This document shows, one piece after another, positions 13,751-40,487 of a DNA stretch of 40,487 nucleotides (position 1 is the stretch's first letter; every line of letters starts with the position of its first letter). The notes beneath the pieces are model-generated. The model made no database searches. It had not been told where the DNA came from and saw nothing but the letters and a program-made list of their open reading frames with translations. The position numbers were made by a program, and so were the translations under genes. The stretch is taken from assembly GCA_015233375.1 (NCBI GenBank), contig JADFXW010000005.1:541-41027 (forward strand), in the 5' to 3' direction. This DNA comes from Candidatus Omnitrophota bacterium (lineage in GTDB: Bacteria > Omnitrophota > Gorgyraeia > Zapsychrales > Fredricksoniimonadaceae).

Positions 13751-15868
13751 TTAACGATAAATTATAAAAAGGGCCACCAAACCTATTAATACCCCAAAAA
13801 ACAAAATTATTAAAGAATAATGAAAAAAATAGCGGCCAAAAGATCCAAAACGCAACACCACCTTTGATTCACCTGCGGGGACCCATAAACCCTTAAATGA
13901 ACCATTAGCCCTAAACAAATGGACTTCTTGGCCATTCACAAAAGCATGCCAATGGCTATGATAATTATCATTAATGACTAAAAACTCCTTATGAGACAAA
14001 TGCGTTTTTAAAATCCAGGTGTTTGAGTCGTGCTTCAAAACCGTCAATTCACCTAACGCCACAGGGTCAAAATCCGCGTTAAAGCTACGGGCCATATCAC
14101 CATGCATATTGTTCTGGATTCCCGCTTTCGCGGGAATGACAATATAAGAGGTATCCGCCCTTGGAACAAAGGCCAGATTAGCATGGGCTTTCATCGCATT
14201 TTGCAAATCAGTATAAAAATTGGGTGTTTCATCGTAAGGCTTCAGAATGTCATAAAAAATAAAGAGGTGTTGGCAATAACCATCAAACACCTCTGGATCA
14301 ATGTGATTAACCAGGTCCCCAAACCAATGGGAAGCATAATACAAATCAATTTTGTGTTTTCCTGTCACTTGATGAGTGTCCTCATAATGGGCAATAAATT
14401 TTTCTAATTGGAACAATTGTTTCTGTAAACTACTGTACACAGGAATTGACTGAATAAAAACAGCCAATAAAACCAACAAAAAACCAAGAAAACAGGAAAT
14501 CTTACGGTCATACAAAATCAATACTATAAAATAAATCAAACTCAATATAACAGCTAACCAATCAGTCCATAAAAGTCCTTGATGCGTTAATAAAAATAAA
14601 ACAAAAATCACATGAGCTGCAATGATAAAAAATAACCATTTTATTTTATGACCAGAAACCTCGATACACGAAAACAGGGATTTTAAAGCAGTCATGGCTA
14701 ATAATAAACCTGCGGGCAGTATTCCTAACCAAAAGAAATAATAAATGTTCCTGATAAATTTAAAACCCATGAGGTGTTCATACAAGAAGCGATGAAGACC
14801 TGAAGCTGTTGTAACCGTTACTAAAAAAAGCGCGAGAATATTAAACAACAAAAAGAAAATTAATTTGTTAACCCGTGCTGGTATAGTAACAAGTAAAATC
14901 AAGAAAAAGATAAACGGCAGGTAAATATCTCCCATGTCTAAATGAGCATGATCCGCAAAAAGTCGATCAAAGAAGCCATGGCTTATAAAATCTCCGCTTT
15001 TCACATGCTCCATGCTCACCGTCACTTCTGAAGCAGTTTTTGCCCCAGCATGCCGGTTTGGAAGAACAAATTCCCCAGCTTTCGAATCTTTATAAAAAAG
15101 AGCGCCAGGAACACATGCGGCTAATAAAAAAAACACACAAAACACGGAAAAAATTTTATTAATTTTAACAAAAGCCAGGCTGCCTTGCATAAACCCAACG
15201 AATTCTTTCCCATAAAACACCAAAACCGCCAAGATAAAAACAGTCAAAATCGTTATAAAGAAAAACGGGATATAGGTTGTGACCAACAACCCCAAGCATA
15301 AACACATCCCTAAAAAATGCCCCTTTTGAAAACGTTGAGCAAAACATAATAAAAAATAAAAAAACCAGACCACAGGAACAAAAATAATAATAATATAATT
15401 ATAAAAAATTTCCGTCGACCAAGAGGAATAAAGAAAAAGAAGATACGCTAAAAAGGCGCAAAAATGATCTTTTAAAAGAAGACGGGTTATCAAATACAAC
15501 GACCACCCTGCTAGAAAATAATAAAAACCTAGAAATATCAAATAGGCAAAAGAGCCGGGTAACCCAAACCCTTTTAAAATTAGTATTAGAATAAAAAATG
15601 GATTAACATCGCCCATCCTTCTTAAAAAGAAATCATTGGACGCCCCGTTAAACCAGGTCGGGTCCCATAATGGATAAACCCCACGACTTAAATTATCAGC
15701 ATAAAAACAAATATGGTTCGCGTAAGAGATAGCATCTTCATATAAAAGCAGGCGACCTGTAAAAAAATGCCAAAAACAAATCACCCATAAAATAAAGGGG
15801 AAAGATAAATAAAAAAATTCGTATCTGGAGGTGTGAGAGGAAAATTTATCAAGGAATGACTTAAACAT
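13751..15868 (-). CDS. YfhO-like polytopic membrane protein (GT-C-like)
   Basis: GVYPLWDP N-terminal motif; many TM helices; C-terminal DNYHSHWHAFVNG..RANGSFKGLWVPAG. Confidence 0.8.
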   Translation of the reverse strand: MFKSFLDKFSSHTSRYEFFYLSFPFILWVICFWHFFTGRLLLYEDAISYANHICFYADNLSRGVYPLWDPTWFNGASNDFFLRRMGDVNPFFILILILKGFGLPGSFAYLIFLGFYYFLAGWSLYLITRLLLKDHFCAFLAYLLFLYSSWSTEIFYNYIIIIFVPVVWFFYFLLCFAQRFQKGHFLGMCLCLGLLVTTYIPFFFITILTVFILAVLVFYGKEFVGFMQGSLAFVKINKIFSVFCVFFLLAACVPGALFYKDSKAGEFVLPNRHAGAKTASEVTVSMEHVKSGDFISHGFFDRLFADHAHLDMGDIYLPFIFFLILLVTIPARVNKLIFFLLFNILALFLVTVTTASGLHRFLYEHLMGFKFIRNIYYFFWLGILPAGLLLAMTALKSLFSCIEVSGHKIKWLFFIIAAHVIFVLFLLTHQGLLWTDWLAVILSLIYFIVLILYDRKISCFLGFLLVLLAVFIQSIPVYSSLQKQLFQLEKFIAHYEDTHQVTGKHKIDLYYASHWFGDLVNHIDPEVFDGYCQHLFIFYDILKPYDETPNFYTDLQNAMKAHANLAFVPRADTSYIVIPAKAGIQNNMHGDMARSFNADFDPVALGELTVLKHDSNTWILKTHLSHKEFLVINDNYHSHWHAFVNGQEVHLFRANGSFKGLWVPAGESKVVLRFGSFGRYFFHYSLIILFFGVLIGLVALFIIYR
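14114..14140. repeat. dRS3/RPE4-like palindrome inside a CDS
   Basis: CTGGATTCCCGCTTTCGCGGGAATGAC matches ATTCCC-N8-GGGAAT; translated in frame as VIPAKAGIQ. Confidence 0.85.
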
Positions 15869-29412: not shown

Positions 29413-32400
29413 TTAGATTACTGATAAAAACCTTCGGATGTTTTGAATACGATATATTGTATCAATAACTGGAGTAAAACCTGGATAATTTTGGTAGCGT
29501 TGGATCATGGCAGCATCAAAACCTGATTGGGCTTGGGCAGCCATTCTATTGAGGTCTATCATTCTTGGGCTCAAATCTATACCACCAGGACTGGCCATGG
29601 CAGAGCTCTTTAACTTGACGCCTAACTTTCGGCTAGGTAATCTTTTATTCCCATCTATCTTTCGACCATTCAGATCAACCCATTGACCTGTCTGAGCGTC
29701 CCGTATTAAATGACATTGCTCCTCCCATTTGCGCCTATCAACATTCCACTGTAACTGATATTTTTCTACAGAAACAAATTTACCTTTCTTAGAATCCCAT
29801 CGAAAGGCACAAGTTTTCACAATAGTGGAATCATATCTCGGATATCCATAAAAAATAACCAATGGACCCCCTTCTTGAGACCTGACAAATGCTTCTGCCC
29901 TCTGTAAACCACCACCCACTTCCATATACCCATCCTTTTGTTTCCATATTTTTGTATTATCCACATCGTTTGGTAATGGCACAATGCCTCTCATATATCC
30001 TCTGTTTAAATTACTTTTTGTCAGCCATGAGTCAAATTTAATCCAACGCCCTTTTGGGTCCTTATACCCTTCTCTGAATTCTTGAGCTATCTTTTCGCAA
30101 AGCTTCTGGTCATCTGTTATCTGATATATCAATTGTTCTTTCTGTTTATCCCAGAACCATACAGATCTCATCACTTCCTTACCTTTTCTGTATTTAACAA
30201 AAGTTATCTCCATTTGACCATTATTATTAACAATACCTATTTGGCCCTCCTGCAAGTGATCACCCGCCTTCACATACATCCTTGGCATCATTTGACCATT
30301 GGGTAAGGGGAGCCCAAGAACATCTCCTTTTTCTAAATAACTCAACGGCACGAATTTGTCTAATCTGAACCATACTTGAGTTGAGCTTTGATACGCCTCC
30401 AGCATGTCCTTTTGTATCCTTGACTTCTCTTCATCTTTTGGCTGATATACTAATTGCTTTTTAGTATTGTCCCAGAACCAGACAGATCTCATCACTTCCT
30501 TACCATCCCTGTAATTAACGAAAGTCATTTCGATTTGACCATTATTATTAACAATACCCATCACACCTTCCTGTAAATTGTCACCAGCCTTCACATATGT
30601 CCTTGGCATCATTTGACCATTTGGTAATGGTATCCCAAGAACATCTCCTTTTTTTAAATAACTCAACGGCACGCGCTCATCCAACTTAAACCATTGTTGA
30701 GTAAAACCTTTGTAAGCTCTTAAAATAGCTCTTTCAATTTGGACTTGTTTTTTATCTTTTTGATATTTAAATCGTCCTGCTCTTTTAAGCCAAAGCCATT
30801 TTGATTGAGCATGCACCTTTGATCCTTTAAATCCGATGATGGTCATTTCTATCCGTCCATTCCCATTATTATCAATAACCACTTCAACATCTTCCAAGTC
30901 ACAACCTACTTGCATAGAATTAGTGGTCTTTGTTCTATACCACAAGTTGCCATTGGGAAGCGGTGTAGCCGGTTTTATAAAGCCTTGTTTTAAGGATGAC
31001 TCTCCTATCCACTGGCCTATTCTGAATCTACAACTCCCTTTCTTAAGGTAAGCATTCCTAAATTTTGTTTCAATCTCTTGGTATTGGAATTGCCCCTGGC
31101 CTTTATTCCATAACCACTGCGATAATGACGCCCTTTCTTGACCAATCAATCCATAAACCGTCATCGTGATACGCCCATTTCCAGCATTATCAATAACCAC
31201 TTCCATATCATCTAAACCTTCTCCAACCTTCATGTCCCGACTTGTTTCTTCTTTCGTCCATAATGAGCCATCAGGCAAAGGCATATCTGGCATACATCCT
31301 TTTAATAAAGAAACAGGGGAAACCCTGTCTTTGACTCTAAAAGTCCTCAACCCCACTTCTCTATAAGCTGTTTTAAATTCATCCTCAAGTGACATGGGCG
31401 TTTCTTTTTCTATAACTGTTATCTTATCAGCCTGCTGCTTATGAACAAATCTCTCAATGTTATTATCCCACCGATAAGCGCAACTATGAAATCCACCATC
31501 AAGAAAACCTAAAAAAACAATTATGGGAACACCGCCTAAATCCGTAACAATAGCTCTTGAGGGTATAAAAACATTTCCCACATCACTATAGAGTTCTTTG
31601 ATTTGCAGGGAGGTTTTATTAGGTAATGGGATTAAAATTTCTAAATCAGCTTCTACTAAATCAATAGATACTCCAGCCGCGGTTTGATATCCATTTTCAA
31701 ATAACTCGCTGATCGTTTTTATTCGCTGTTCCTTAACAGCCTCCTTTTTATCTTGGCTTGAAACAACGTCACTTTGCCCATCTTTTTCTTCAGTCGATAA
31801 GACTTCTGGCCTCGCTTGTTCCTCTTGTTCTTCAAGACCACCGCTGCGTATCTCAGGAACCTCATTTTTAATATTTTCTGATGTACCCGCCTCTTTCTGA
31901 TTTGGTGGATTCACAGGCGCATCTTGTTGTGGACTTCTTTTCTGACGTTGTTTTTCTGAATTTTTATGTTTTACACATTTAATTTGAAAATTTCCATAAT
32001 AGGTAACCTCACCGCCTCCTTTAAACTTCACGCGATAGCCTTGCCCCAAATCAGGATAATCAGGATTTTGTTCAATCACTTCAATAATCTTCCCATAACG
32101 TTGTCCAATTAAAACCTCATCTCCAGCTTCCAATTCATCATCATCACTAAATTTAACAAACCCTGGGACTGCCGTTTCTATGCTTCTCTGTGAAGATTTA
32201 AGCCTTCTCGCCTTTTTACCCTTTTTAGTCCTACCTCTCTCTAAAGTCTTGTCTGCCAAAACAACTTCTTTCTGTCTTTCAGGTATTTTGACCTGACTCT
32301 GTGCTTTCTTATCAGGCATTGGAACATGAGGGACTTGAATGTCTATATCTGGAATGGGCCTGCTATCTATCCCTTCAATAGAGAGAAGATCAAATTTTCC

Positions 32401-34308
32401 TTTTATGGGGTTCCATAACCATTGACTTTGTCCTGTTTGATGTCCATTCTTAACCCCAACAATAGTTCTTTCTATATGATGGGGATTTCTTAAAACCTCT
32501 AATAATGCCTTGAACACCTGCTTATCTTTAACAATTTCTTCAATCTTATCTTCATCAATTAATCCGGGATCAACAAAAACCTGTCCTCCAACCCTGACCA
32601 TATAACCTTGAGATATTAATTGCTCAAAAACCATAATTCCTGCAGAACGACCCTGCAAAGATCTCAAGGCATCAAAAATATCACTTGTTTCAACAACACC
32701 AGACCCTCCTATCGTATGTTCAATAATCACGTGGGCGTTCGTTAACCCTTGGCCTACCTCCATATATTCTTGACTCAAAAGTTTCCTCCCATTAGGTAAC
32801 AAACAACCAGGTTTTAAATACCCTGCCATTAAAAGATCTTTTTCAAGCCATTCGGTTAATTCTATTTTAGCAGTTCCAGGAACTGTATAGGCCAGCCTCA
32901 ACGCATTTCTTATACTTATATCTACGTTTCTTTTTATCTTATTTCTTTCTTCTTGATGTAATACTTCTTCTTGGGGTATTTCATTAGTCTCTGAAGAATC
33001 TATAGGGACTTTTATAATACCACTTCTTCTCGAACGATAAGTCATCACCACTCCATTTCTCTCAACCTCATATACCGCTAAACCAGCGAGTGGCCCTTCC
33101 TTCTCAGAAGGCAGCTCTGACTTAATCTTCCATGGCGTCCCCTGGATTAAAATCAAATCCCCAGGATTTATCGTTTGATATTGGGGACCTTGACTCTCTT
33201 GTGCTGGTGAAACCAATCTTACCTTCATGCCAAAACTTTCTTTTTCAGGCACGGCCATGGCTCCATCTTCCCTATCCAGTGTTATTTTCTCAAAACCTGA
33301 AATCCCGCCTGAAAAATATTTTCTGGGAATACGAAGACCGTTGGTTTTGTTGATATCCTCCTTGATGTAATTAAAAACACCCTTCTGATAGGCCTTAATA
33401 TAACGCTCATAAATTTGTTCCTTTATTGTCTTATCTTCAATATCAACGCCTTTTATCTTGCCCTTACCCACATAAACCTTGGCCAATAAAGTCTTTGTAA
33501 TAACATCCCTGTACCATTTTGCTAAAATGGCGGCATAATAAATTTGACGTAAATGAGAAAAATTCTTGCCCTCGTTAACCTCATGTTCGATGGCCGGTAA
33601 GATGATTTGACGAATAAGTTGGGAAGTAGAATGGTGAATATTGTTTTTGTGATGAGAAAACGCCAAATAATCCTCTTCAAGCATCACCTTCAATCGAGCT
33701 TCAGTCACATAAACAGCATGGCCTTTTTCATAAATTTTTGCTTGAGCAGGCACGATCCAAACCTTGTTAAAACAATTAAGCGGGATATCATGGGTACCAA
33801 AACGCTTTGAGGCTTCTTCATAAATCTTGTCCCAAAATTCCTTACCCAAAGCTTTTTCTGGATAAATAAGAGAGGCTGTCAATTGCTTAAGCAGATAATC
33901 CTGGGCTAACATGTCTCGTCCCAGATCCGTATTACCTAATTCATTGGGGATGACCCTGTTATGCTCATAGGGCGATAAATTGACCCATAAATCTGATGCT
34001 TTGACAGTCAGAGCAGCTAAGAAGTACCTCACCATGCGCCGGCCTTCTTCTTTTATTGTGCTTTGATACACTCGAGTGCTGCCTGAATCTAATATGAAAT
34101 CAAAATCAAATGGTTTGTCAGGGAAGGTTATCATCCCCTTTAACAGCACAGGGACAAAATCAGAAGATAGATAAACCTGACTGCCTACAGATGGCAAGGC
34201 GTTTAGAAATAGATTTTGAGCAAAGGCCTGTCTTGGACTAAGAAGCAAGGAACCGCTTAATAGGACACACAGAATCTTTCGAGCTAAAGATTTTATATGA
34301 TATTTCAT
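29413..34308 (-). CDS. Large exported modular protein, paralog 1 (conserved N-domain, ~106-aa repeat cargo, GGIDL C-module)
   Basis: Signal peptide ending AFA-Q; WVNLSPYE / GRDMLAQDYLLKQLTASL / FNKVWI / YQKGVFNYIK / YFSGG (33304-33318); GGIDL (29572-29586). Confidence 0.85.
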   Translation of the reverse strand: MKYHIKSLARKILCVLLSGSLLLSPRQAFAQNLFLNALPSVGSQVYLSSDFVPVLLKGMITFPDKPFDFDFILDSGSTRVYQSTIKEEGRRMVRYFLAALTVKASDLWVNLSPYEHNRVIPNELGNTDLGRDMLAQDYLLKQLTASLIYPEKALGKEFWDKIYEEASKRFGTHDIPLNCFNKVWIVPAQAKIYEKGHAVYVTEARLKVMLEEDYLAFSHHKNNIHHSTSQLIRQIILPAIEHEVNEGKNFSHLRQIYYAAILAKWYRDVITKTLLAKVYVGKGKIKGVDIEDKTIKEQIYERYIKAYQKGVFNYIKEDINKTNGLRIPRKYFSGGISGFEKITLDREDGAMAVPEKESFGMKVRLVSPAQESQGPQYQTINPGDLILIQGTPWKIKSELPSEKEGPLAGLAVYEVERNGVVMTYRSRRSGIIKVPIDSSETNEIPQEEVLHQEERNKIKRNVDISIRNALRLAYTVPGTAKIELTEWLEKDLLMAGYLKPGCLLPNGRKLLSQEYMEVGQGLTNAHVIIEHTIGGSGVVETSDIFDALRSLQGRSAGIMVFEQLISQGYMVRVGGQVFVDPGLIDEDKIEEIVKDKQVFKALLEVLRNPHHIERTIVGVKNGHQTGQSQWLWNPIKGKFDLLSIEGIDSRPIPDIDIQVPHVPMPDKKAQSQVKIPERQKEVVLADKTLERGRTKKGKKARRLKSSQRSIETAVPGFVKFSDDDELEAGDEVLIGQRYGKIIEVIEQNPDYPDLGQGYRVKFKGGGEVTYYGNFQIKCVKHKNSEKQRQKRSPQQDAPVNPPNQKEAGTSENIKNEVPEIRSGGLEEQEEQARPEVLSTEEKDGQSDVVSSQDKKEAVKEQRIKTISELFENGYQTAAGVSIDLVEADLEILIPLPNKTSLQIKELYSDVGNVFIPSRAIVTDLGGVPIIVFLGFLDGGFHSCAYRWDNNIERFVHKQQADKITVIEKETPMSLEDEFKTAYREVGLRTFRVKDRVSPVSLLKGCMPDMPLPDGSLWTKEETSRDMKVGEGLDDMEVVIDNAGNGRITMTVYGLIGQERASLSQWLWNKGQGQFQYQEIETKFRNAYLKKGSCRFRIGQWIGESSLKQGFIKPATPLPNGNLWYRTKTTNSMQVGCDLEDVEVVIDNNGNGRIEMTIIGFKGSKVHAQSKWLWLKRAGRFKYQKDKKQVQIERAILRAYKGFTQQWFKLDERVPLSYLKKGDVLGIPLPNGQMMPRTYVKAGDNLQEGVMGIVNNNGQIEMTFVNYRDGKEVMRSVWFWDNTKKQLVYQPKDEEKSRIQKDMLEAYQSSTQVWFRLDKFVPLSYLEKGDVLGLPLPNGQMMPRMYVKAGDHLQEGQIGIVNNNGQMEITFVKYRKGKEVMRSVWFWDKQKEQLIYQITDDQKLCEKIAQEFREGYKDPKGRWIKFDSWLTKSNLNRGYMRGIVPLPNDVDNTKIWKQKDGYMEVGGGLQRAEAFVRSQEGGPLVIFYGYPRYDSTIVKTCAFRWDSKKGKFVSVEKYQLQWNVDRRKWEEQCHLIRDAQTGQWVDLNGRKIDGNKRLPSRKLGVKLKSSAMASPGGIDLSPRMIDLNRMAAQAQSGFDAAMIQRYQNYPGFTPVIDTIYRIQNIRRFLSVI
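30121..30700 (-). repeat. Recent intragenic tandem duplication, 321-bp period
   Basis: CCAGAACCA at 30151/30472, CTGATATA at 30121/30442, CCCAAGAACATCTCCTTT at 30313/30634. Confidence 0.9.
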
Positions 34309-34374: not shown

Positions 34375-36969
34375 TTAATTTGTCTTATAATCAAACACAG
34401 AAACACCAAAAGTGGATGATATATCAAGAAGGCCAATATGGAGGATAATAGGCACGATTTTTTTCACGCCTTGACGCTTCATCTTCATCAATAAAGCTTT
34501 ATTAACGGAAACATGAATTTGATTATGCTGGTCTCTCTGGACTGAAAGGACCGCATCTTCTGACTTTAAGTCAATACCACCTTCTGGATTAGGCTGCCTG
34601 TCTGCTGCTTCGCTTCGCAGATAAGATGAGCCTAAAAGAAACCCATATACCTCATCCATATGATACCTATCGCCTTGATCTAAATAAAAATCTAAAGAAT
34701 GGGAAGACTTTATCAGGTCTATCACATTTATCAAAAGAGCCTTTTGCCTTTCATACTCTCTTATCTGATGATGTGCTGTTTGATACCTGATACGCTCTTC
34801 TAAACCTGTCCCAAAATTCTTATAAAGATTATAAAGAACATCCGCAAAGGATACCGACACAAAATCGCCTGACTTAAAATGAGTTAGATAATCACCCGTT
34901 TTATATTGACTATAATAATAACTGTAAACGTAAGCCATCCAATAATGCCGTACAATTGGGTCAATCGGCCTTCTTACCCACTGCTCAAACGTGTTAAAAT
35001 ATTTCCTAAAGGCAATAACAGCATTCACTCTTTCTTCAATATAATCCCTTTGATAGTAGAATGACCCTTCTCGCAGGTGTCTTGCTAAACCCCAATGTCC
35101 AGGAACATATCTATGGCGTTGATATTTCCCTAGATACCTTTCAAAAACCTTCTCATTTGATCCAAAATCATCTGGAAGAAGGTCTAAATATTCCATAATA
35201 ATATAGGCCGCTTCATCGATATATACAGGCTGTTTACTGGTTTCTTGAATAAGTTGTATCAAAGGGACAACTTCATCAACCATGGGCACTCGGCGCTGAC
35301 CTTTGCCTAAAGAATCCCTGGAAACACCTGCCTTGGTTTTTTGATTGAAATTAAAATGTTCCATGAGAGCTGTTAAAACCCTTGAGTTTCTTATCTTATT
35401 TTCTTGATTGTCTGGATCTGCGGCAATAGCAATCCCTTCAAGATCTGATATCAAACCTGATAAAGACGTCTGGTCAAAAGCTGAAATCCGCTGCAACGCA
35501 TTTTGAGCAGCCCTGATTTTCTCTAATGACTCAAAAATCCCAGAAGGGTCTAACGCCAGATAGGCAGATTGGTATTTGGATAATATAGGCTGCAATATAC
35601 TGCCCCTCTTTCTTGTTAACCGAGAAATTTTGAGGGCAATTTCGTATTCCTTTTGTTGAAAATCTCTTCTAAGACGCCTGATTTCCTCTACAATAGCTGC
35701 CTTTTTTTGGTGAATTTGTTCGCTCCATTGAATGATTTCCGGCTCAAGAGGGGTTAAGACAAGCCTTTCATAAGGCCTCTCTTTTTCTTTGACCATTTGA
35801 GGCGATGCCTGAATCTCTTCTGCGACCATACCAGGATTGGCAAAAACCTTAACAGCTAAACAACCGTCTAATTGAGGGATAACGGATGCTAACTGCGCAT
35901 TGCTTCTTAATAAAAATTCTTTCATTCCCCCATCATACCCGCCAGAAAAATATTGATGCGCTACCGGCACTTGAGTCTTTGGGTCAAACTCATCTTTGAT
36001 AAAATTAAAAACACCTTTTTGGTAGGCTTTTAAATATTGGTTATAAATAGCTTCATTGGTGGCCTTATCATTCTGATCAATCCCTTTCACCGTACTTTTA
36101 TTGGCATAGACCTGATTAAGTAAGGCTTGCTTTAAATGACGCTTAAACCAGACCGCTAATACCTGTGCATAAAAAATCTGGCGTAAGGTGGAAAAATTCT
36201 TGCCTTCATTGACTTCTTTTTCGATTTCAGGAAGAATAATTTGACGGATAATATTTGAACTCCCCCTAGCCCCCTCTTTCAAAAAAAGAGGGGGGATATT
36301 ATTGGTTTTAATGTCTTCTTGTTTAGCCAATGCAAGATAATCCTCTTCTAACATCACCTTCAAATGCCCACTGACGATAAACCCTGTTTGACCATGTTCA
36401 TACACACTTGCCTTTTGAGGGACTATCCATACTTTATTAAAGGTATTTACTGGTATTTGTGTTGACCCATATAATTCTTGAGCTTGTTTATAAATTTTGG
36501 CCCAAAATGTTTTTCCTAAAGAATTTTCAGGATACATCAAGGATGCAGTCAACTGCTTGAGCAAATAATCTTGGGCTAACAAGTCCCTGCCCATGACTGT
36601 TTGGCCCAGCGCTGTTGGTATAATCCTGTCTTTTTCATAGGGGCTTAAATTGACCCAAATATCCTTATCAGGCAGGGTTAAGGAAGCAAAAAAGTATCTG
36701 ACCATCCGTAACGCTTCCCTTTTCAATTCTTCCTTTGATGTCTTTGATTCACCAGGTGAAACAATAAAATCAAATAAAAAGGGATTGTTTTCATTAATGA
36801 TCACCCCTTTCATTAATGCAGGTTGAAACAAAGGACTTGCAGAAACCATGGTCCCTGCAACAGGTAAATCAGCAATAGACATAGCCATGCTCATAGAGCC
36901 CCCCGGCCCTGGCATAACCATGATTGATAAAATAACAAAATAAGTGAATATTCTTTTGAGTTTATTCAT
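34375..36969 (-). CDS. Exported modular protein, paralog 2 (unknown helical cargo)
   Basis: Same N-domain motifs; YFSGG (35938-35952); GGIDL (34567-34581). Confidence 0.85.
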   Translation of the reverse strand: MNKLKRIFTYFVILSIMVMPGPGGSMSMAMSIADLPVAGTMVSASPLFQPALMKGVIINENNPFLFDFIVSPGESKTSKEELKREALRMVRYFFASLTLPDKDIWVNLSPYEKDRIIPTALGQTVMGRDLLAQDYLLKQLTASLMYPENSLGKTFWAKIYKQAQELYGSTQIPVNTFNKVWIVPQKASVYEHGQTGFIVSGHLKVMLEEDYLALAKQEDIKTNNIPPLFLKEGARGSSNIIRQIILPEIEKEVNEGKNFSTLRQIFYAQVLAVWFKRHLKQALLNQVYANKSTVKGIDQNDKATNEAIYNQYLKAYQKGVFNFIKDEFDPKTQVPVAHQYFSGGYDGGMKEFLLRSNAQLASVIPQLDGCLAVKVFANPGMVAEEIQASPQMVKEKERPYERLVLTPLEPEIIQWSEQIHQKKAAIVEEIRRLRRDFQQKEYEIALKISRLTRKRGSILQPILSKYQSAYLALDPSGIFESLEKIRAAQNALQRISAFDQTSLSGLISDLEGIAIAADPDNQENKIRNSRVLTALMEHFNFNQKTKAGVSRDSLGKGQRRVPMVDEVVPLIQLIQETSKQPVYIDEAAYIIMEYLDLLPDDFGSNEKVFERYLGKYQRHRYVPGHWGLARHLREGSFYYQRDYIEERVNAVIAFRKYFNTFEQWVRRPIDPIVRHYWMAYVYSYYYSQYKTGDYLTHFKSGDFVSVSFADVLYNLYKNFGTGLEERIRYQTAHHQIREYERQKALLINVIDLIKSSHSLDFYLDQGDRYHMDEVYGFLLGSSYLRSEAADRQPNPEGGIDLKSEDAVLSVQRDQHNQIHVSVNKALLMKMKRQGVKKIVPIILHIGLLDISSTFGVSVFDYKTN
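36257..36295. repeat. Family A palindrome in frame within paralog 2
   Basis: GAACTCCCCCTAGCCCCCTCTTTCAAAAAAAGAGGGGGG, read on the minus strand as PPLFLKEGARGSS. Confidence 0.9.
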
Positions 36970-36978
36970 AATTGAGCT

Positions 36979-37977
36979 TTAACTTGTTTGCAGTCCTAAA
37001 ATTGGCAGAATGCTTAAAAGAGGTATAATACGAATAATATTCGCTACTACACCTGAAAATTTTCCACGTTGAAATTCAGCAATCATCGCAGGGTTAAATT
37101 TTATTTTAACACCTTGACCAACCCTCTCAATATCCAGCCCCGCCTTCTTAACCTTAAGGTCAATACCGCCAGGCACAAAATTCTCTTCTAAATGCCGAGC
37201 CTTTCCTATGTCACTTATATTCATGGCAAAATCTTGGGACCATTCAAGCTCAATTTTCAACTGATTCTTATCGAAACCTGCTAACCGAATAACATCATCT
37301 TCATCCATCATCAGAAGCCTCTTTACCACGTTCATTTCTTTTTCACCCGTATCTTCGCCTGTTTCTTGACTTAAAAGGACTTCTTTAGCCTTATTAAAGA
37401 CGGGTTTAATACGTTTGGAAACATCGACAATCTCATCCACCTTGGGGAATAAAACAGATCCAGATTTATCCCGATAACCATTTAACCGTGCCACATATTG
37501 CTGTTGAATAGACAAATCCCCTGGATTCATGACTTTTTCCATAAGCCGTTCGGTTGCATTGATAACAAAATCATCAAAATCTTCTATCCTCAATTGTTGA
37601 ATCTTCAAAAGACCGTCATCACCAAAAACAAAGTTTACAAATTCCTCCATCCCTTCAAAAGATTCAACCAGGCGTTTATCCTTATACATTAACTTATAAG
37701 CCAAAACAAAATCTTCGACATACCCCAACATTTTATCCGCATTAAAGAATAATCTTGCTTCTGGTGATTGAATTTCATCAAATGTCTTTAAAAGAAGATG
37801 ATTAATATCCCTGGAAATATCATGATCAATAGCCAAGTTATTCTGATTGTATACAATTTCCTGGGCTGCTGCCTGATTATACCGTGTCACCACACGTGAT
37901 CCAACCTGCATCTGGGCTGCGATTACGGGATTGGCTGAAAAATATTCACCTATCCCGGCCTTCCACAAAATGAACAA
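36979..37977 (-). CDS. C-terminal part of paralog 3 (frameshifted), carrying the GGIDL module
   Basis: No convincing start; overlaps the upstream ORF by 32 nt in another frame; GGIDL at 37156-37170. Confidence 0.75.
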   Translation of the reverse strand: MFILWKAGIGEYFSANPVIAAQMQVGSRVVTRYNQAAAQEIVYNQNNLAIDHDISRDINHLLLKTFDEIQSPEARLFFNADKMLGYVEDFVLAYKLMYKDKRLVESFEGMEEFVNFVFGDDGLLKIQQLRIEDFDDFVINATERLMEKVMNPGDLSIQQQYVARLNGYRDKSGSVLFPKVDEIVDVSKRIKPVFNKAKEVLLSQETGEDTGEKEMNVVKRLLMMDEDDVIRLAGFDKNQLKIELEWSQDFAMNISDIGKARHLEENFVPGGIDLKVKKAGLDIERVGQGVKIKFNPAMIAEFQRGKFSGVVANIIRIIPLLSILPILGLQTS

Positions 37978-40288
37978 ACGGGAGCCTGCCTAACTCATGA
38001 GCTAAAGCTACCGTGACGAGTTTATCTTGATCCATTTGTAATTTCATTTTCTGTGTATATAGTTGGGCAGAAGCCAAGCCACGCAGGACATGCCTTTGTC
38101 TATTCGTCAATGTTTTTGTCGAATCCTCTTTAACATGTACAAATGTTGGAAAACAGCCGCCGATATTCTTAAGCCTTACCCACCCCGAGGATGAACGAAT
38201 TTTCTCTGCTAATCCGGCGCTTGTCATAGAGGCACTGACCTCTTGTTTCTGACTAAGAAGCTCAGTTCTTCCTAAATGCAACAGTTTAGAAGTTATATTG
38301 TTTCTTATTTTAGCCAGTTGCGGTGATCCTTGAAGTCTCTCAAGAGCATCGTGGTCTAATATATTCCCAAAGCTTATATTGTTCCCGTACACCGATGCCT
38401 CCAGTACACCTTTCGAATCAAGATATAAATACGATTGATCATAGGAGGGAGTATCGTATGCTATTGTAAAATCGTTATCAAATTGTCTTCGTATAGCCTG
38501 ACACGCTTCAAAGTATGTTTCATAATCAATAAAATATGGATCCTTTTCTTCCGCATATAATTTAGCTGTTTTTCCTATTCTTTTATACCTGCTTATTTTC
38601 CAACGAAAATTCTGGAGACCTTGTCTTTGTTGCTCCATTAATTGACCGATTTTAGGAAGGTCTGCCAAATTTTTTGCCGAAGCCACGGTCAAAATTTGGG
38701 TCTTTAGATGAGGAAAATGTTGCTTAATCAATCCGATTGTACGCAAACCTGCTTCAAAAGTTCCCTGACGTCCACTGACTTGATCATTTTCAATATTATA
38801 ACCATTGATTGAAACAGAAAGAAAATCAATATTGGGTATAAGATCTAAAAATTTCCTCTCATTTAATAAAACGCTGTTTGTATAAAATAAAATCCGTAAT
38901 CCCTTTTCTTTGGCATATTTTACAAGATCTACTATATGAGAAACCATCAAGGGTTCTCCTCCAGTAATCGTTAAGGAGACAACCCCATTAGCCTGCATCA
39001 TATCAACCATTCTTTTATGTTCTTCAAGAGTCCCTTCCTGATCTGCCGCAAAATTGTCCTTCCAACATATAGAACAATCACGATTACATCTTTTTGTAAC
39101 CAAAAATTCCATTACCGGCGGCAATATCATTGCCGCATTAGACTTGCTTACAAACGTTTCAACGACAGCCATGGCCCCATTCACTGTTATTTGGTCTCCT
39201 GGAGTTGGCTTCTGTTCTGCTTCCAGGATACCAGAAGTCTTCATGGCTAATCCACCTGAGAAATATTTGCGTGAAATGAACTGTTTACTACCCTCATCCA
39301 TCTCTTCCTTAATATAATTAAAAACCCCCTTTTTGTACGCTTTTAAATACTCTTCATAAATTTTTTCCTTGACCCCAATATCATCAGATAAAACGCCACC
39401 GATTTTGGCTTTATTGCTATAAACCTGATTAAGCAAAGCATCTTTCAAAGCCAGCTTATACCATGAAGCCAAAATCATTGAATAAAACATCTGCCGCAAG
39501 GGTGCAAAATTCCGTCCTTGATTGACCTCTTTTTCAAGTTCAGGAATGATGATTTCGCGGATGATGTGACTGCCTATTTGATTGGTAGAGACGCCATAAA
39601 TAGCATCTCTGCGATGATAAAAATTGCCTTGATATTTTTTAAGAGAAAGATAATCCTCATCAAGCATCACCTTTAATTTTGCGCCAACCACATACACGGC
39701 GTTGTTATGTTCCAAAACCTTGGCCTTTTCTGCCACAATCCATACCTTGTTAAAAGTACTCACCAAAATTTCAGATGTGCCATATTTTGCCTGGGCCTTT
39801 GCATAAACCCTATTCCAAAACTCTTGGCCTAAATGTTTCTCAGGATAAATGAGGGACGCGGTTAATTGCTTTAAGATGTAGTCTTGGGCTAACATATCAC
39901 GCCCCAATCCTGTTTTTCCTAACTCGGTTGGAATCATCCTGTTTTTTTCATAAGGAGATAAATTAACCCATAAATCATCTTCTTTGATGGTCAATGAGGC
40001 CAAGAAATATTTAATAAGTTTTTCGGATTCAACCTTAAATTCATGCCTGTTCACTTTTAGACCGGAATTGCCCGTGTCTAGAATGAAATCAAATAGAAAT
40101 GGATTTTCAGAATGAACTTTCAAGCCTTTAATCAAAACTGGCTCGAAGGCAGGGCTTAAATTTACCATGGTCCCTGCAACAGGTAAATCAGCAATAGACA
40201 TAGCCATGCTCATAGAGCACACCGGCCCTGGCATAGCCATGATTGATAAAATAACAAAATAAATGAATATTTTTTTGAGTTTATTCAT
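37946..40288 (-). CDS. Paralog 3, N-terminal part: conserved N-domain, viperin-like radical SAM, start of HD-like domain
   Basis: Start MNKLKK (40288) matches paralog 2; YFSGG (39251-39265); CNRDCSIC (39065-39088), TGGEP, RWK; ALAHELGRLPF just before the stop. Confidence 0.8.
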   Translation of the reverse strand: MNKLKKIFIYFVILSIMAMPGPVCSMSMAMSIADLPVAGTMVNLSPAFEPVLIKGLKVHSENPFLFDFILDTGNSGLKVNRHEFKVESEKLIKYFLASLTIKEDDLWVNLSPYEKNRMIPTELGKTGLGRDMLAQDYILKQLTASLIYPEKHLGQEFWNRVYAKAQAKYGTSEILVSTFNKVWIVAEKAKVLEHNNAVYVVGAKLKVMLDEDYLSLKKYQGNFYHRRDAIYGVSTNQIGSHIIREIIIPELEKEVNQGRNFAPLRQMFYSMILASWYKLALKDALLNQVYSNKAKIGGVLSDDIGVKEKIYEEYLKAYKKGVFNYIKEEMDEGSKQFISRKYFSGGLAMKTSGILEAEQKPTPGDQITVNGAMAVVETFVSKSNAAMILPPVMEFLVTKRCNRDCSICWKDNFAADQEGTLEEHKRMVDMMQANGVVSLTITGGEPLMVSHIVDLVKYAKEKGLRILFYTNSVLLNERKFLDLIPNIDFLSVSINGYNIENDQVSGRQGTFEAGLRTIGLIKQHFPHLKTQILTVASAKNLADLPKIGQLMEQQRQGLQNFRWKISRYKRIGKTAKLYAEEKDPYFIDYETYFEACQAIRRQFDNDFTIAYDTPSYDQSYLYLDSKGVLEASVYGNNISFGNILDHDALERLQGSPQLAKIRNNITSKLLHLGRTELLSQKQEVSASMTSAGLAEKIRSSSGWVRLKNIGGCFPTFVHVKEDSTKTLTNRQRHVLRGLASAQLYTQKMKLQMDQDKLVTVALAHELGRLPFVHFVEGRDR
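39585..39612. repeat. GTAG-type REP in frame within paralog 3
   Basis: GTAGAGACGCCATAAATAGCATCTCTGC hairpin, read on the minus strand as RRDAIYGVST. Confidence 0.75.
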
Positions 40289-40323
40289 AAATAAATTTTG
40301 ATAATAAATATATAGACAGTGAG

Positions 40324-40352
40324 AGTATACCCGGTATGCAAGAAATAAGCAA
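40324..40352 (-). promoter_or_regulatory. Putative sigma70 promoter of the paralog array
   Basis: TTGCTT (40347-40352), 17 nt, TATACT (40324-40329); supports the start at 40288 over 40393. Confidence 0.6.
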
Positions 40353-40487
40353 ATTTGTTTATTTTTGAAAATTTTTTCTGGGGAAAATTTCATGCAACTG
40401 TATTTTTAAAAAATAAGAAAAAAGAGGAAATCAAATATGGTGGGATGATAGGAAATGTTCTAGAAACTGCTTGGTACCTTCTAATAA

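Follow-up and report, generated by a model that had tools for sequence, protein, structure and literature searches.

A viperin-related radical SAM domain and an altered dGTPase-like HD domain as joint cargo of a putative signal-peptide carrier family in an Omnitrophota genome

Two enzyme-like domains behind a signal-peptide-like start

We analyzed a stretch of 40,487 nucleotides (hereafter the window) from contig JADFXW010000005.1 of a Candidatus Omnitrophota bacterium (assembly GCA_015233375.1). On its minus strand lies a gene that joins a radical S-adenosylmethionine (SAM) domain to an HD domain behind a signal-peptide-like N-terminus. The radical SAM domain is viperin-related, a cousin rather than a true viperin, and what is new here is the occurrence of this unnamed enzyme and an HE-type dGTPase-like domain inside an unpublished carrier. 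Our favored explanation, to which we give a probability of about 0.45, is that the intact product would be a Sec-exported, effector-like nucleotide-modifying pair whose Fe-S cluster is gained only in another cytoplasm.

A preliminary description of the window had placed viperin-type and dGTPase-type motifs between 37960 and 39139. All of these motifs were located in the minus-strand open reading frame (ORF) 37946-40393, namely CxxxCxxC (39065-39088), GGEP (38951-38962), RWK (38597-38605), SYxYLD (38417-38434), RLxN (38165-38176), NRxxH (38090-38104) and HELGRLPFVHxxE (37961-37999). The limits given for the feature proved too short, as the gene is longer, and a frame break, a tail in the next ORF and a large carrier family had been overlooked. 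The start codon is most likely the ATG at 40288 rather than the ORF start at 40393, because this is where P0115, a database protein of 780 aa, starts, and because the initial 125 nt resemble the start of the neighboring paralogue.

The radical SAM domain has a viperin-type fold and lies in a separate clade

The radical SAM domain (38291..39142, minus strand) matched Pfam Radical_SAM (PF04055) with an E value of 5.4e-19 and 69.4 bits against a cut-off of 29.5, which places it in the superfamily. Among 63 NCBIfam families the viperin model NF038283 was the best match, covering positions 3-261 of 281, and the SPASM and MoaA models mostly covered the N-terminal core alone. PADLOC pVip models gave 91-93 bits, and a profile built from 44 relatives ranked nine viperin sequences at the top among solved structures. 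A structure model of the domain reached a predicted local distance difference test (pLDDT) of 92; its input alignment consisted of viperin-like relatives, and the model may lean towards known viperin folds. By Z-score, ranks 1-10 were all viperins (Z 26-28, root-mean-square deviation 2.0-2.5 Å over about 260 residues), with lower values for the other radical SAM enzymes SuiB (24.5), SkfB (22.8) and MoaA (19.6-19.8). The modeled domain has the closed barrel with a C-terminal extension and no SPASM that is typical of viperins. A single-sequence fold model of the cargo was unusable (pLDDT 40). SkfB, which came first by phmmer and by Foldseek E value, was rejected as nearest kin, with a template modeling (TM) score by target of 0.57 vs 0.74-0.81 for viperins and a lower Z. 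Hits of a word-based protein search were mostly to generic SPASM enzymes, scoring 76 bits at most. The cysteines of a SPASM/twitch auxiliary Fe-S cluster were not found in the domain, which holds one further Cys only, and it is not a SPASM or MoaA family member.

Phylogeny separated kinship from membership. We built a quick tree of 91 rows and a careful tree of 34 rows, in which the viperins were eight annotated, plasmid-borne sequences, all prokaryotic and none eukaryotic. The branch of the query and the viperins stood together apart from the SPASM/MoaA-type outgroup (100/99). Within this group the query fell in a clade of its own (support 96 in the quick tree; 96/92 in the careful tree), with the eight viperins separate (99; 100/98). 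Forcing the query into the viperin clade was rejected in an approximately unbiased (AU) test on the 34 rows (p = 0.0004), a test chosen after the quick tree had been seen. One sequence first assigned to the clade of the query (L073) fell elsewhere in the tree. The score against NF038283 was 81.8 bits, below the curated cut-off of 180. The name "viperin-like" thus holds for the fold and for the larger tree group, and does not extend to membership among the viperins; the proposed separation from SPASM and MoaA radical SAM enzymes was borne out.

The [4Fe-4S] motif CxxxCxxC is intact, the RWK motif is common to viperins, and the Tyr of SYxxxD (38417..38434) corresponds to the viperin active-site Tyr. 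We compared nine pocket positions that hold an invariant or a basic residue in 7-8 of the 8 viperins, with mouse viperin numbering taken from profile and structure comparisons. Three of the nine were kept by the query (R245, K247 and Y302) and six were changed (N77E, H79L, K120S, N122T, K220Q and N222L). The roles that we ascribe to most viperin pocket residues (the asparagines and the lysines, including those binding the triphosphate) are presumed. The clade has a pocket of its own: among 18 other members, Asp77 was present in 14, Gln220 in 17, Lys247 in 17, Asn249 in 16 and Tyr302 in 14, and the cluster cysteines were kept in 15-16. From these residues, the substrate may be a nucleotide-like molecule other than a nucleoside triphosphate (NTP) bound in the viperin way. 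In a recent preprint, human viperin His78Ile is described as still making ddhCTP (the 3'-deoxy-3',4'-didehydro form of CTP), so that loss of that His alone is not excluding, and an RxxxY clamp is described as essential (bioRxiv 10.64898/2026.09.10.750538). The query has a Lys at the inferred Arg position of this clamp and no Tyr; the strict RxxxY is present in only 3 of the 8 annotated viperins.

The closest relatives were 29-40% identical, and occur both as domains in proteins of ~460-6,000 aa and as stand-alone proteins of 274-287 aa. Two relatives of the cargo domains bear the label Candidatus Omnitrophota. A clade profile was run against 400 other genomes of the phylum, with scoring of six candidates in each genome; matches at E < 1e-50 numbered five, all in ORFs of more than 2,000 aa. 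Eight of 13 other fused members carry an HD domain after the radical SAM domain, a count made without two near-copies and without nine sequences that are stand-alone or short. No full-length clade member was found with P0117 in genome contigs, with the clade alignment in viral contigs or with P0124 in phages. The viperin model had no match in 401 genomes of the phylum, but none in control genomes either, and absence is therefore not shown.

Among clade relatives in giant proteins (P0120, P0121, P0172 and L065) the cluster motif is variable: in P0120 it is followed by a long insert, and in P0121 two of the three cluster cysteines are gone. A more distant relative is found on an Escherichia coli plasmid (NZ_CP045714.1, L098:3968-5965). 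This radical SAM gene is viperin-related, falls outside the viperin clade and appears to share an operon with genes for a deoxynucleoside kinase and NudI, with toxin-antitoxin pairs on either side. This operon is a candidate nucleotide-based defense module.

The HD domain belongs to an altered dGTPase-like family

The first half of the HD domain (37961..38215, minus strand) contains the RL, NRxxH, HE and PFxHxxE motifs. The domain runs past the stop at 37946, and its second half (37270..37959), with the EAxLFFxAD...D motif, is encoded in another frame by the overlapping ORF 36979-37977. Two mutually close proteins, P0227 and P0234, and a domain from G115 cover both ORF portions without a gap. 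An Atlas model of the intact homologue P0227 gave TM scores of 0.64-0.72 against HD/dGTPase clusters, below the Atlas naming bar, in agreement with the dGTPase-like HD fold that had been proposed. Pfam HD scored 20.7 bits on P0234, across the junction (cut-off 22), and had no match to the two halves in the window. An hhalign comparison with four dGTPases gave a probability of 56 and an E value of 1e-4 over 41 columns. A search of the source genome with TIGR01353 (dGTPase) found only a separate dgt gene on contig C195, the HD domain staying below the family cut-off. No HD structure was matched when the HD profile was compared with solved structures. The profile also had no match among longer proteins, which is weak evidence. 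Helices of 14-3-3 proteins were the best PDB matches of the profile (E 0.004) and were rejected as helical look-alikes.

Changes from HD to HE and from H to R had been read in the preliminary description as signs of altered or lost activity. We reject decay as their cause: the Glu and Arg are family traits, because all three intact homologues carry them. All four sequences (the window and the three homologues) share NRxxH, the Glu in place of Asp, the Arg, a His-x-x-Glu dyad, the AD pair and an Asp 8 residues on. Four residues after the second metal-binding Asp, all four have Gly where the four dGTPases have Tyr. The metal ligands would be H, H, E and D, compared with the standard H...HD...D, and the G115 domain also lacks one metal His. 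A His-x-x-Glu dyad and a conserved Tyr are described for the Vibrio dGTPase Vdg (PMC13519002); both were mapped onto the HD domain by motif alone. From its sequence, the domain is best described as an altered dGTPase-like family and not a decayed dGTPase. In P0234, a kinase-type P-loop motif follows the HD domain at residues ~1540-1570.

A one-base break divides the gene within the HD domain

A one-base frame break lies within the HD domain (37955..37965), and the upstream ORF stops at 37946. Three intact homologues run uninterrupted across the junction, and set in register with them the window has one surplus base near 37,960. No slippery run was seen at the site. The rest of the 3.3 kb contains no other stop or break; any functional loss would therefore be recent. 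P0115 forms a one-member cluster and is present on the source contig only, and the exact 23-nt pattern and the second HD half had no match in metagenome contigs.

Conserved control genes (97,669 bases) were used as a gauge of assembly quality. Six frame shifts were flagged, comprising two at N gaps, three at gene boundaries and one real shift, in a hypothetical protein; five in-alignment stops were also flagged, four of which look like shadow frames. The head domains of the carrier family (58,150 bases) contained one plain shift, plus repeat and IS110 insertions. Since errors do not abound in the assembly and decay does occur in the family, we lean slightly towards a real lesion rather than an assembly error. 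If the break is real, the product of this copy lacks the tail and has half an HD domain, and the gene is probably a young pseudogene.

The gene belongs to a large family of putative signal-peptide carriers

The N-terminal third of the product is a conserved head domain (39245..40189, minus strand), for which there was no Pfam or NCBIfam match. It had 66 matches in the source genome (1.76 Mb, 64% complete) and was matched in 37 of the 41 genomes searched, the source genome counted among them. Head and GGIDL tail were both present in 34 ORFs. The query scored 517 bits against the head domain, and its tail (36979..37173), absent from the upstream ORF, is encoded in the overlapping downstream ORF, making the gene a member of this head and tail family. 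The family plan is a signal-peptide-like start, a fixed head, a variable cargo and the GGIDL tail.

We judged signal peptides by a home-made heuristic, run without a shuffled control, and scored 49 family N-termini. The N-terminus of the query (40202..40288, cleavage site inferred) has 3 Lys, a 12-residue hydropathy peak of 2.77 and an end with Pro/Ala, and carries no twin-arginine (Tat) motif and no lipobox. Across the family, a hydropathy peak of at least 2.0 over 12 residues was present in 48/49, a positive n-region in 44/49 and a small-residue, cleavage-like end in 39/49, with a Tat motif or a lipobox in 0/49. The signal peptide suggested for the query was thus recovered as signal-like, by this heuristic, in the query and in most of the 49 paralogues. 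TatC was found in 4/4 relatives tested and was not found in the source genome, which is 64% complete. A second strongly hydrophobic 19-mer, able to return the cargo to the cytoplasm, is absent from the upstream ORF.

Cysteine makes up 0.33% of residues in 34 complete family members. The figure for other long reading frames, which are crude as a control because they take in non-genes, is 1.24%. The CxxxCxxC of the query is the sole one among 66 family cargo stretches of the source genome, in which there were also seven secretin matches. A Pfam scan covered 40 of 50 long gap-free sibling cargoes on other contigs and matched 13 of the 40, mostly to cytoplasm-acting modules (GGDEF, protein kinase, FHA, Fis helix-turn-helix (HTH), RNA polymerase alpha C-terminal domain (alpha-CTD), methyltransferases, AAA and starch synthase). 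Behind the same signal and head, L135 (G000:C177), L127 (C10), L118 (C143) and L126 (C204) have alpha-CTD-like, Fis HTH, FHA and protein kinase matches.

Where the cargo might work

Chains that leave by Sec are unfolded, and Fe-S proteins are normally exported in the folded state by Tat. This makes a radical SAM enzyme behind a Sec-type signal, which cannot carry its cluster out of the cell, a telling probe of where the carrier's cargo works; activity would require either that the cargo be delivered into another cytoplasm or that it be kept at home. In our favored explanation the N-terminus would be a cleavable Sec signal, and the chain would leave unfolded and without its cluster. Head and tail might then act as the handle in a second step of transport, possibly by one of the secretin systems, and the radical SAM domain would acquire [4Fe-4S] and SAM only inside another (host or prey) cytoplasm. 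The altered pocket, which has lost two triphosphate-binding lysines and has its own conserved residues D/E, Q, K, N/S and Y, might accept a less phosphorylated or different nucleotide or sugar-nucleotide substrate, from which the domain perhaps still abstracts a ribose hydrogen, and the HE domain might remove phosphates from the substrate or product of the radical SAM domain.

Arming in another cytoplasm is suggested because the cluster motif is intact in a cysteine-poor, Tat-less carrier without a second membrane segment. The cytoplasm-acting sibling cargoes, the seven secretin matches, the recurrence of HD domains after the clade and the distant E. coli plasmid operon with its nucleotide genes are consistent with this, and Omnitrophota are described as largely host-dependent (PMC10066038). 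A stronger version, which we think unlikely, is that a host-dependent bacterium exports relatives of antiviral enzymes as weapons through the head/tail system, to be armed by the Fe-S clusters and SAM of the host and to make a new modified nucleotide.

Several observations weigh against export followed by arming elsewhere. The family has no delivery machine tied to it. The stand-alone clade members have N-termini that begin at the barrel, and giant proteins of the kind holding clade members are often predicted to be membrane-anchored and cytoplasm-facing (bioRxiv 2026.06.07.730766). Seven of the eight HD neighbors in fused members are of one other subtype, unlike the HD type of the query, and are kin to each other, and the radical SAM domain was not matched in the examined sequence of the three intact HD homologues. 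No Pfam match was obtained for 27/40 sibling cargoes, and two of the named ones are of envelope type (OEP/HlyD and GDSL lipase). The fusion shows no sign of persistence, with neither cargo domain found in 62 other genomes of the family, and the gene is broken in the source assembly.

The alternative that survives best, and which we nevertheless consider unlikely, is that the cargo works in the cytoplasm of its producer. The start would then be a membrane anchor, or the chain would be cut before export, with the carrier as a scaffold and the pair modifying nucleotides or glycans of the producer. Fe-S clusters are loaded and SAM is supplied in the cytoplasm, the sibling cargoes are of cytoplasmic type, and both the stand-alone clade members and the predicted anchoring of many Omnitrophota giants fit retention at home. 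Against it, the family-wide positive n-regions and cleavage-like ends orient the chain outward, there is no second membrane segment in the upstream ORF, and cysteine depletion fits passage out of the cytoplasm.

A little less likely again is that the gene is passenger DNA, in a birth-and-death array that captures domains at random, the fusion having never been functional or being so no longer, and decaying. The frame break, the single occurrence of the fusion and the lesions in other family members (frameshift, repeat insertions, in-frame stops and IS110 insertions) point this way. Both domains have nevertheless kept family-conserved residues at 30-42% overall identity to relatives, the 3.3 kb is otherwise free of stops and breaks, and the single break may be an assembly error.

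Action confined to the periplasm or surface, the cargo folding without its cluster as a nucleotide-binding or structural module, we regard as improbable: the signal-only architecture, the envelope-type siblings, the loss of two cluster cysteines in P0121 and of a metal-binding His in one HD homologue would fit it, but the cluster ligands are kept in a cysteine-poor family and most named sibling cargoes need cytoplasmic substrates. A true antiviral module, pairing a viperin that makes ddhNTP chain terminators with a dNTP-depleting dGTPase to guard the bacterium or its host from phage, is very improbable, since the viperin fold, the best NCBIfam and PADLOC matches, the retained RWK and Tyr and the activity of human His78Ile are set against a score far below the family cut-off, a rejected clade with the eight viperins, six changed pocket positions, an HD domain unmatched by the dGTPase family model, and gene neighbors that are not defense genes.

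Genomic context and decay within the family

Three carrier-family members stand in tandem within the window, and the gene neighbors are these paralogues and housekeeping genes. The adjacent paralogue (34375..36969, minus strand, 864 aa) consists of head, unknown cargo and tail, and has a short in-frame hairpin inside its head domain (36270-36295). The third (29413..34308, minus strand, 1631 aa) has a head, a repetitive unknown cargo and a tail; several diverged repeats of ~90 aa with a PLPNG motif gave no above-cut-off Pfam match. The first 125 nt of the gene under study and of the adjacent paralogue (40164-40288 vs 36845-36969) are identical at 120/125 positions and then at only 45/75, which may reflect either a recent gene conversion across the signal-peptide segment or an artefact of the assembly. 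A 705-aa ORF without a Pfam match lies at 13751-15868. Promoter and terminator scans gave results no better than chance.

Interruptions also occur in other carrier genes. C12 (2330-2520) and C135 (1270-1420) share a repeat-like insert that disrupts the frame, a small indel does so in C166 (8130-8300), and in-frame stops occur in C10 (4798) and C194 (530). An IS110-family insertion sequence (PF01548 match, 346-aa frame) was located at G000:C88:17860-19483 (L111). In at least 6 paralogues (junctions including C36, C43, C145, C184 and C185) its transposase-side end coincides with one and the same conserved motif of the head, W-V-N-L-S-P, and a matching other end was present in C26, C175 and C5. 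The element has a short sub-terminal inverted repeat, and its two ends were not seen on one contig. Its appearance is that of a site-specific and possibly RNA-guided element with the carrier gene family as its target.

Comparison with known systems

A literature search found no paper joining "Omnitrophota" and "GGIDL" and none on a secreted viperin-like enzyme or on the carrier family, which preprint supplements may list. The domain samples an unnamed branch beside the viperins, and its rebuilt pocket and the small, easily expressed stand-alone members would make new nucleotide chemistry directly testable, a value tempered by the fusion being a singleton and this copy being broken.

With viperin/RSAD2 and pVips (NF038283, PADLOC pVip; PDB 6Q2P, 6Q2Q, 7N7H, 7N7I and 9DFN) the radical SAM domain shares the whole-domain fold, the larger tree branch, CxxxCxxC, GGEP, RWK and the active-site Tyr, and the lack of a SPASM cluster. 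Unlike viperins, it has ~20% identity to them, scores below the family cut-off, forms its own clade and is fused inside a signal-peptide carrier, with E, L, S, T, Q and L at mouse N77, H79, K120, N122, K220 and N222; its tail has no RxxxY, a motif strict in only 3 of the 8 annotated viperins. The HD domain resembles dGTPase (Dgt, TIGR01353) and SAMHD1-type enzymes in its motif order (RL, RxxH, H[DE]xGxxPFxHxxE, EA...AD and D at +8), in the TM score of ~0.7 of an intact homologue to dGTPase-cluster models and in the His-x-x-Glu dyad, kept by motif. It differs in having HE for HD and Gly for Tyr (4/4), in being shorter, in lacking a TIGR01353 match and in being split here by a frameshift.

Polymorphic toxin and effector carriers (two-partner secretion CdiA, Rhs and MafB) likewise combine a fixed trafficking module with interchangeable cargo and have many paralogues, and the carrier family shares these traits and evidence of recombination. 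Unlike in those carriers, the cargo is bracketed by head and tail rather than C-terminal, no immunity gene follows, and there is no sequence match. A further parallel is with the Omnitrophota giant multi-enzyme proteins and Archaeovorins (bioRxiv 10.1101/2023.11.21.568195; 10.64898/2026.06.07.730766), which in the parts of these preprints available to us combine a signal peptide with cytoplasmic-type modules that include radical SAM and HD; in a general way, the preprints list such modules as preceded by signal peptides. Long proteins of this kind hold the nearest relatives of both cargo domains. The carrier studied here is set apart, by the descriptions in those same parts, through its own fixed head and GGIDL tail, and it differs from the giants in its length of ~1,100 aa rather than at least 10,000 and in having no membrane helices before the cargo.

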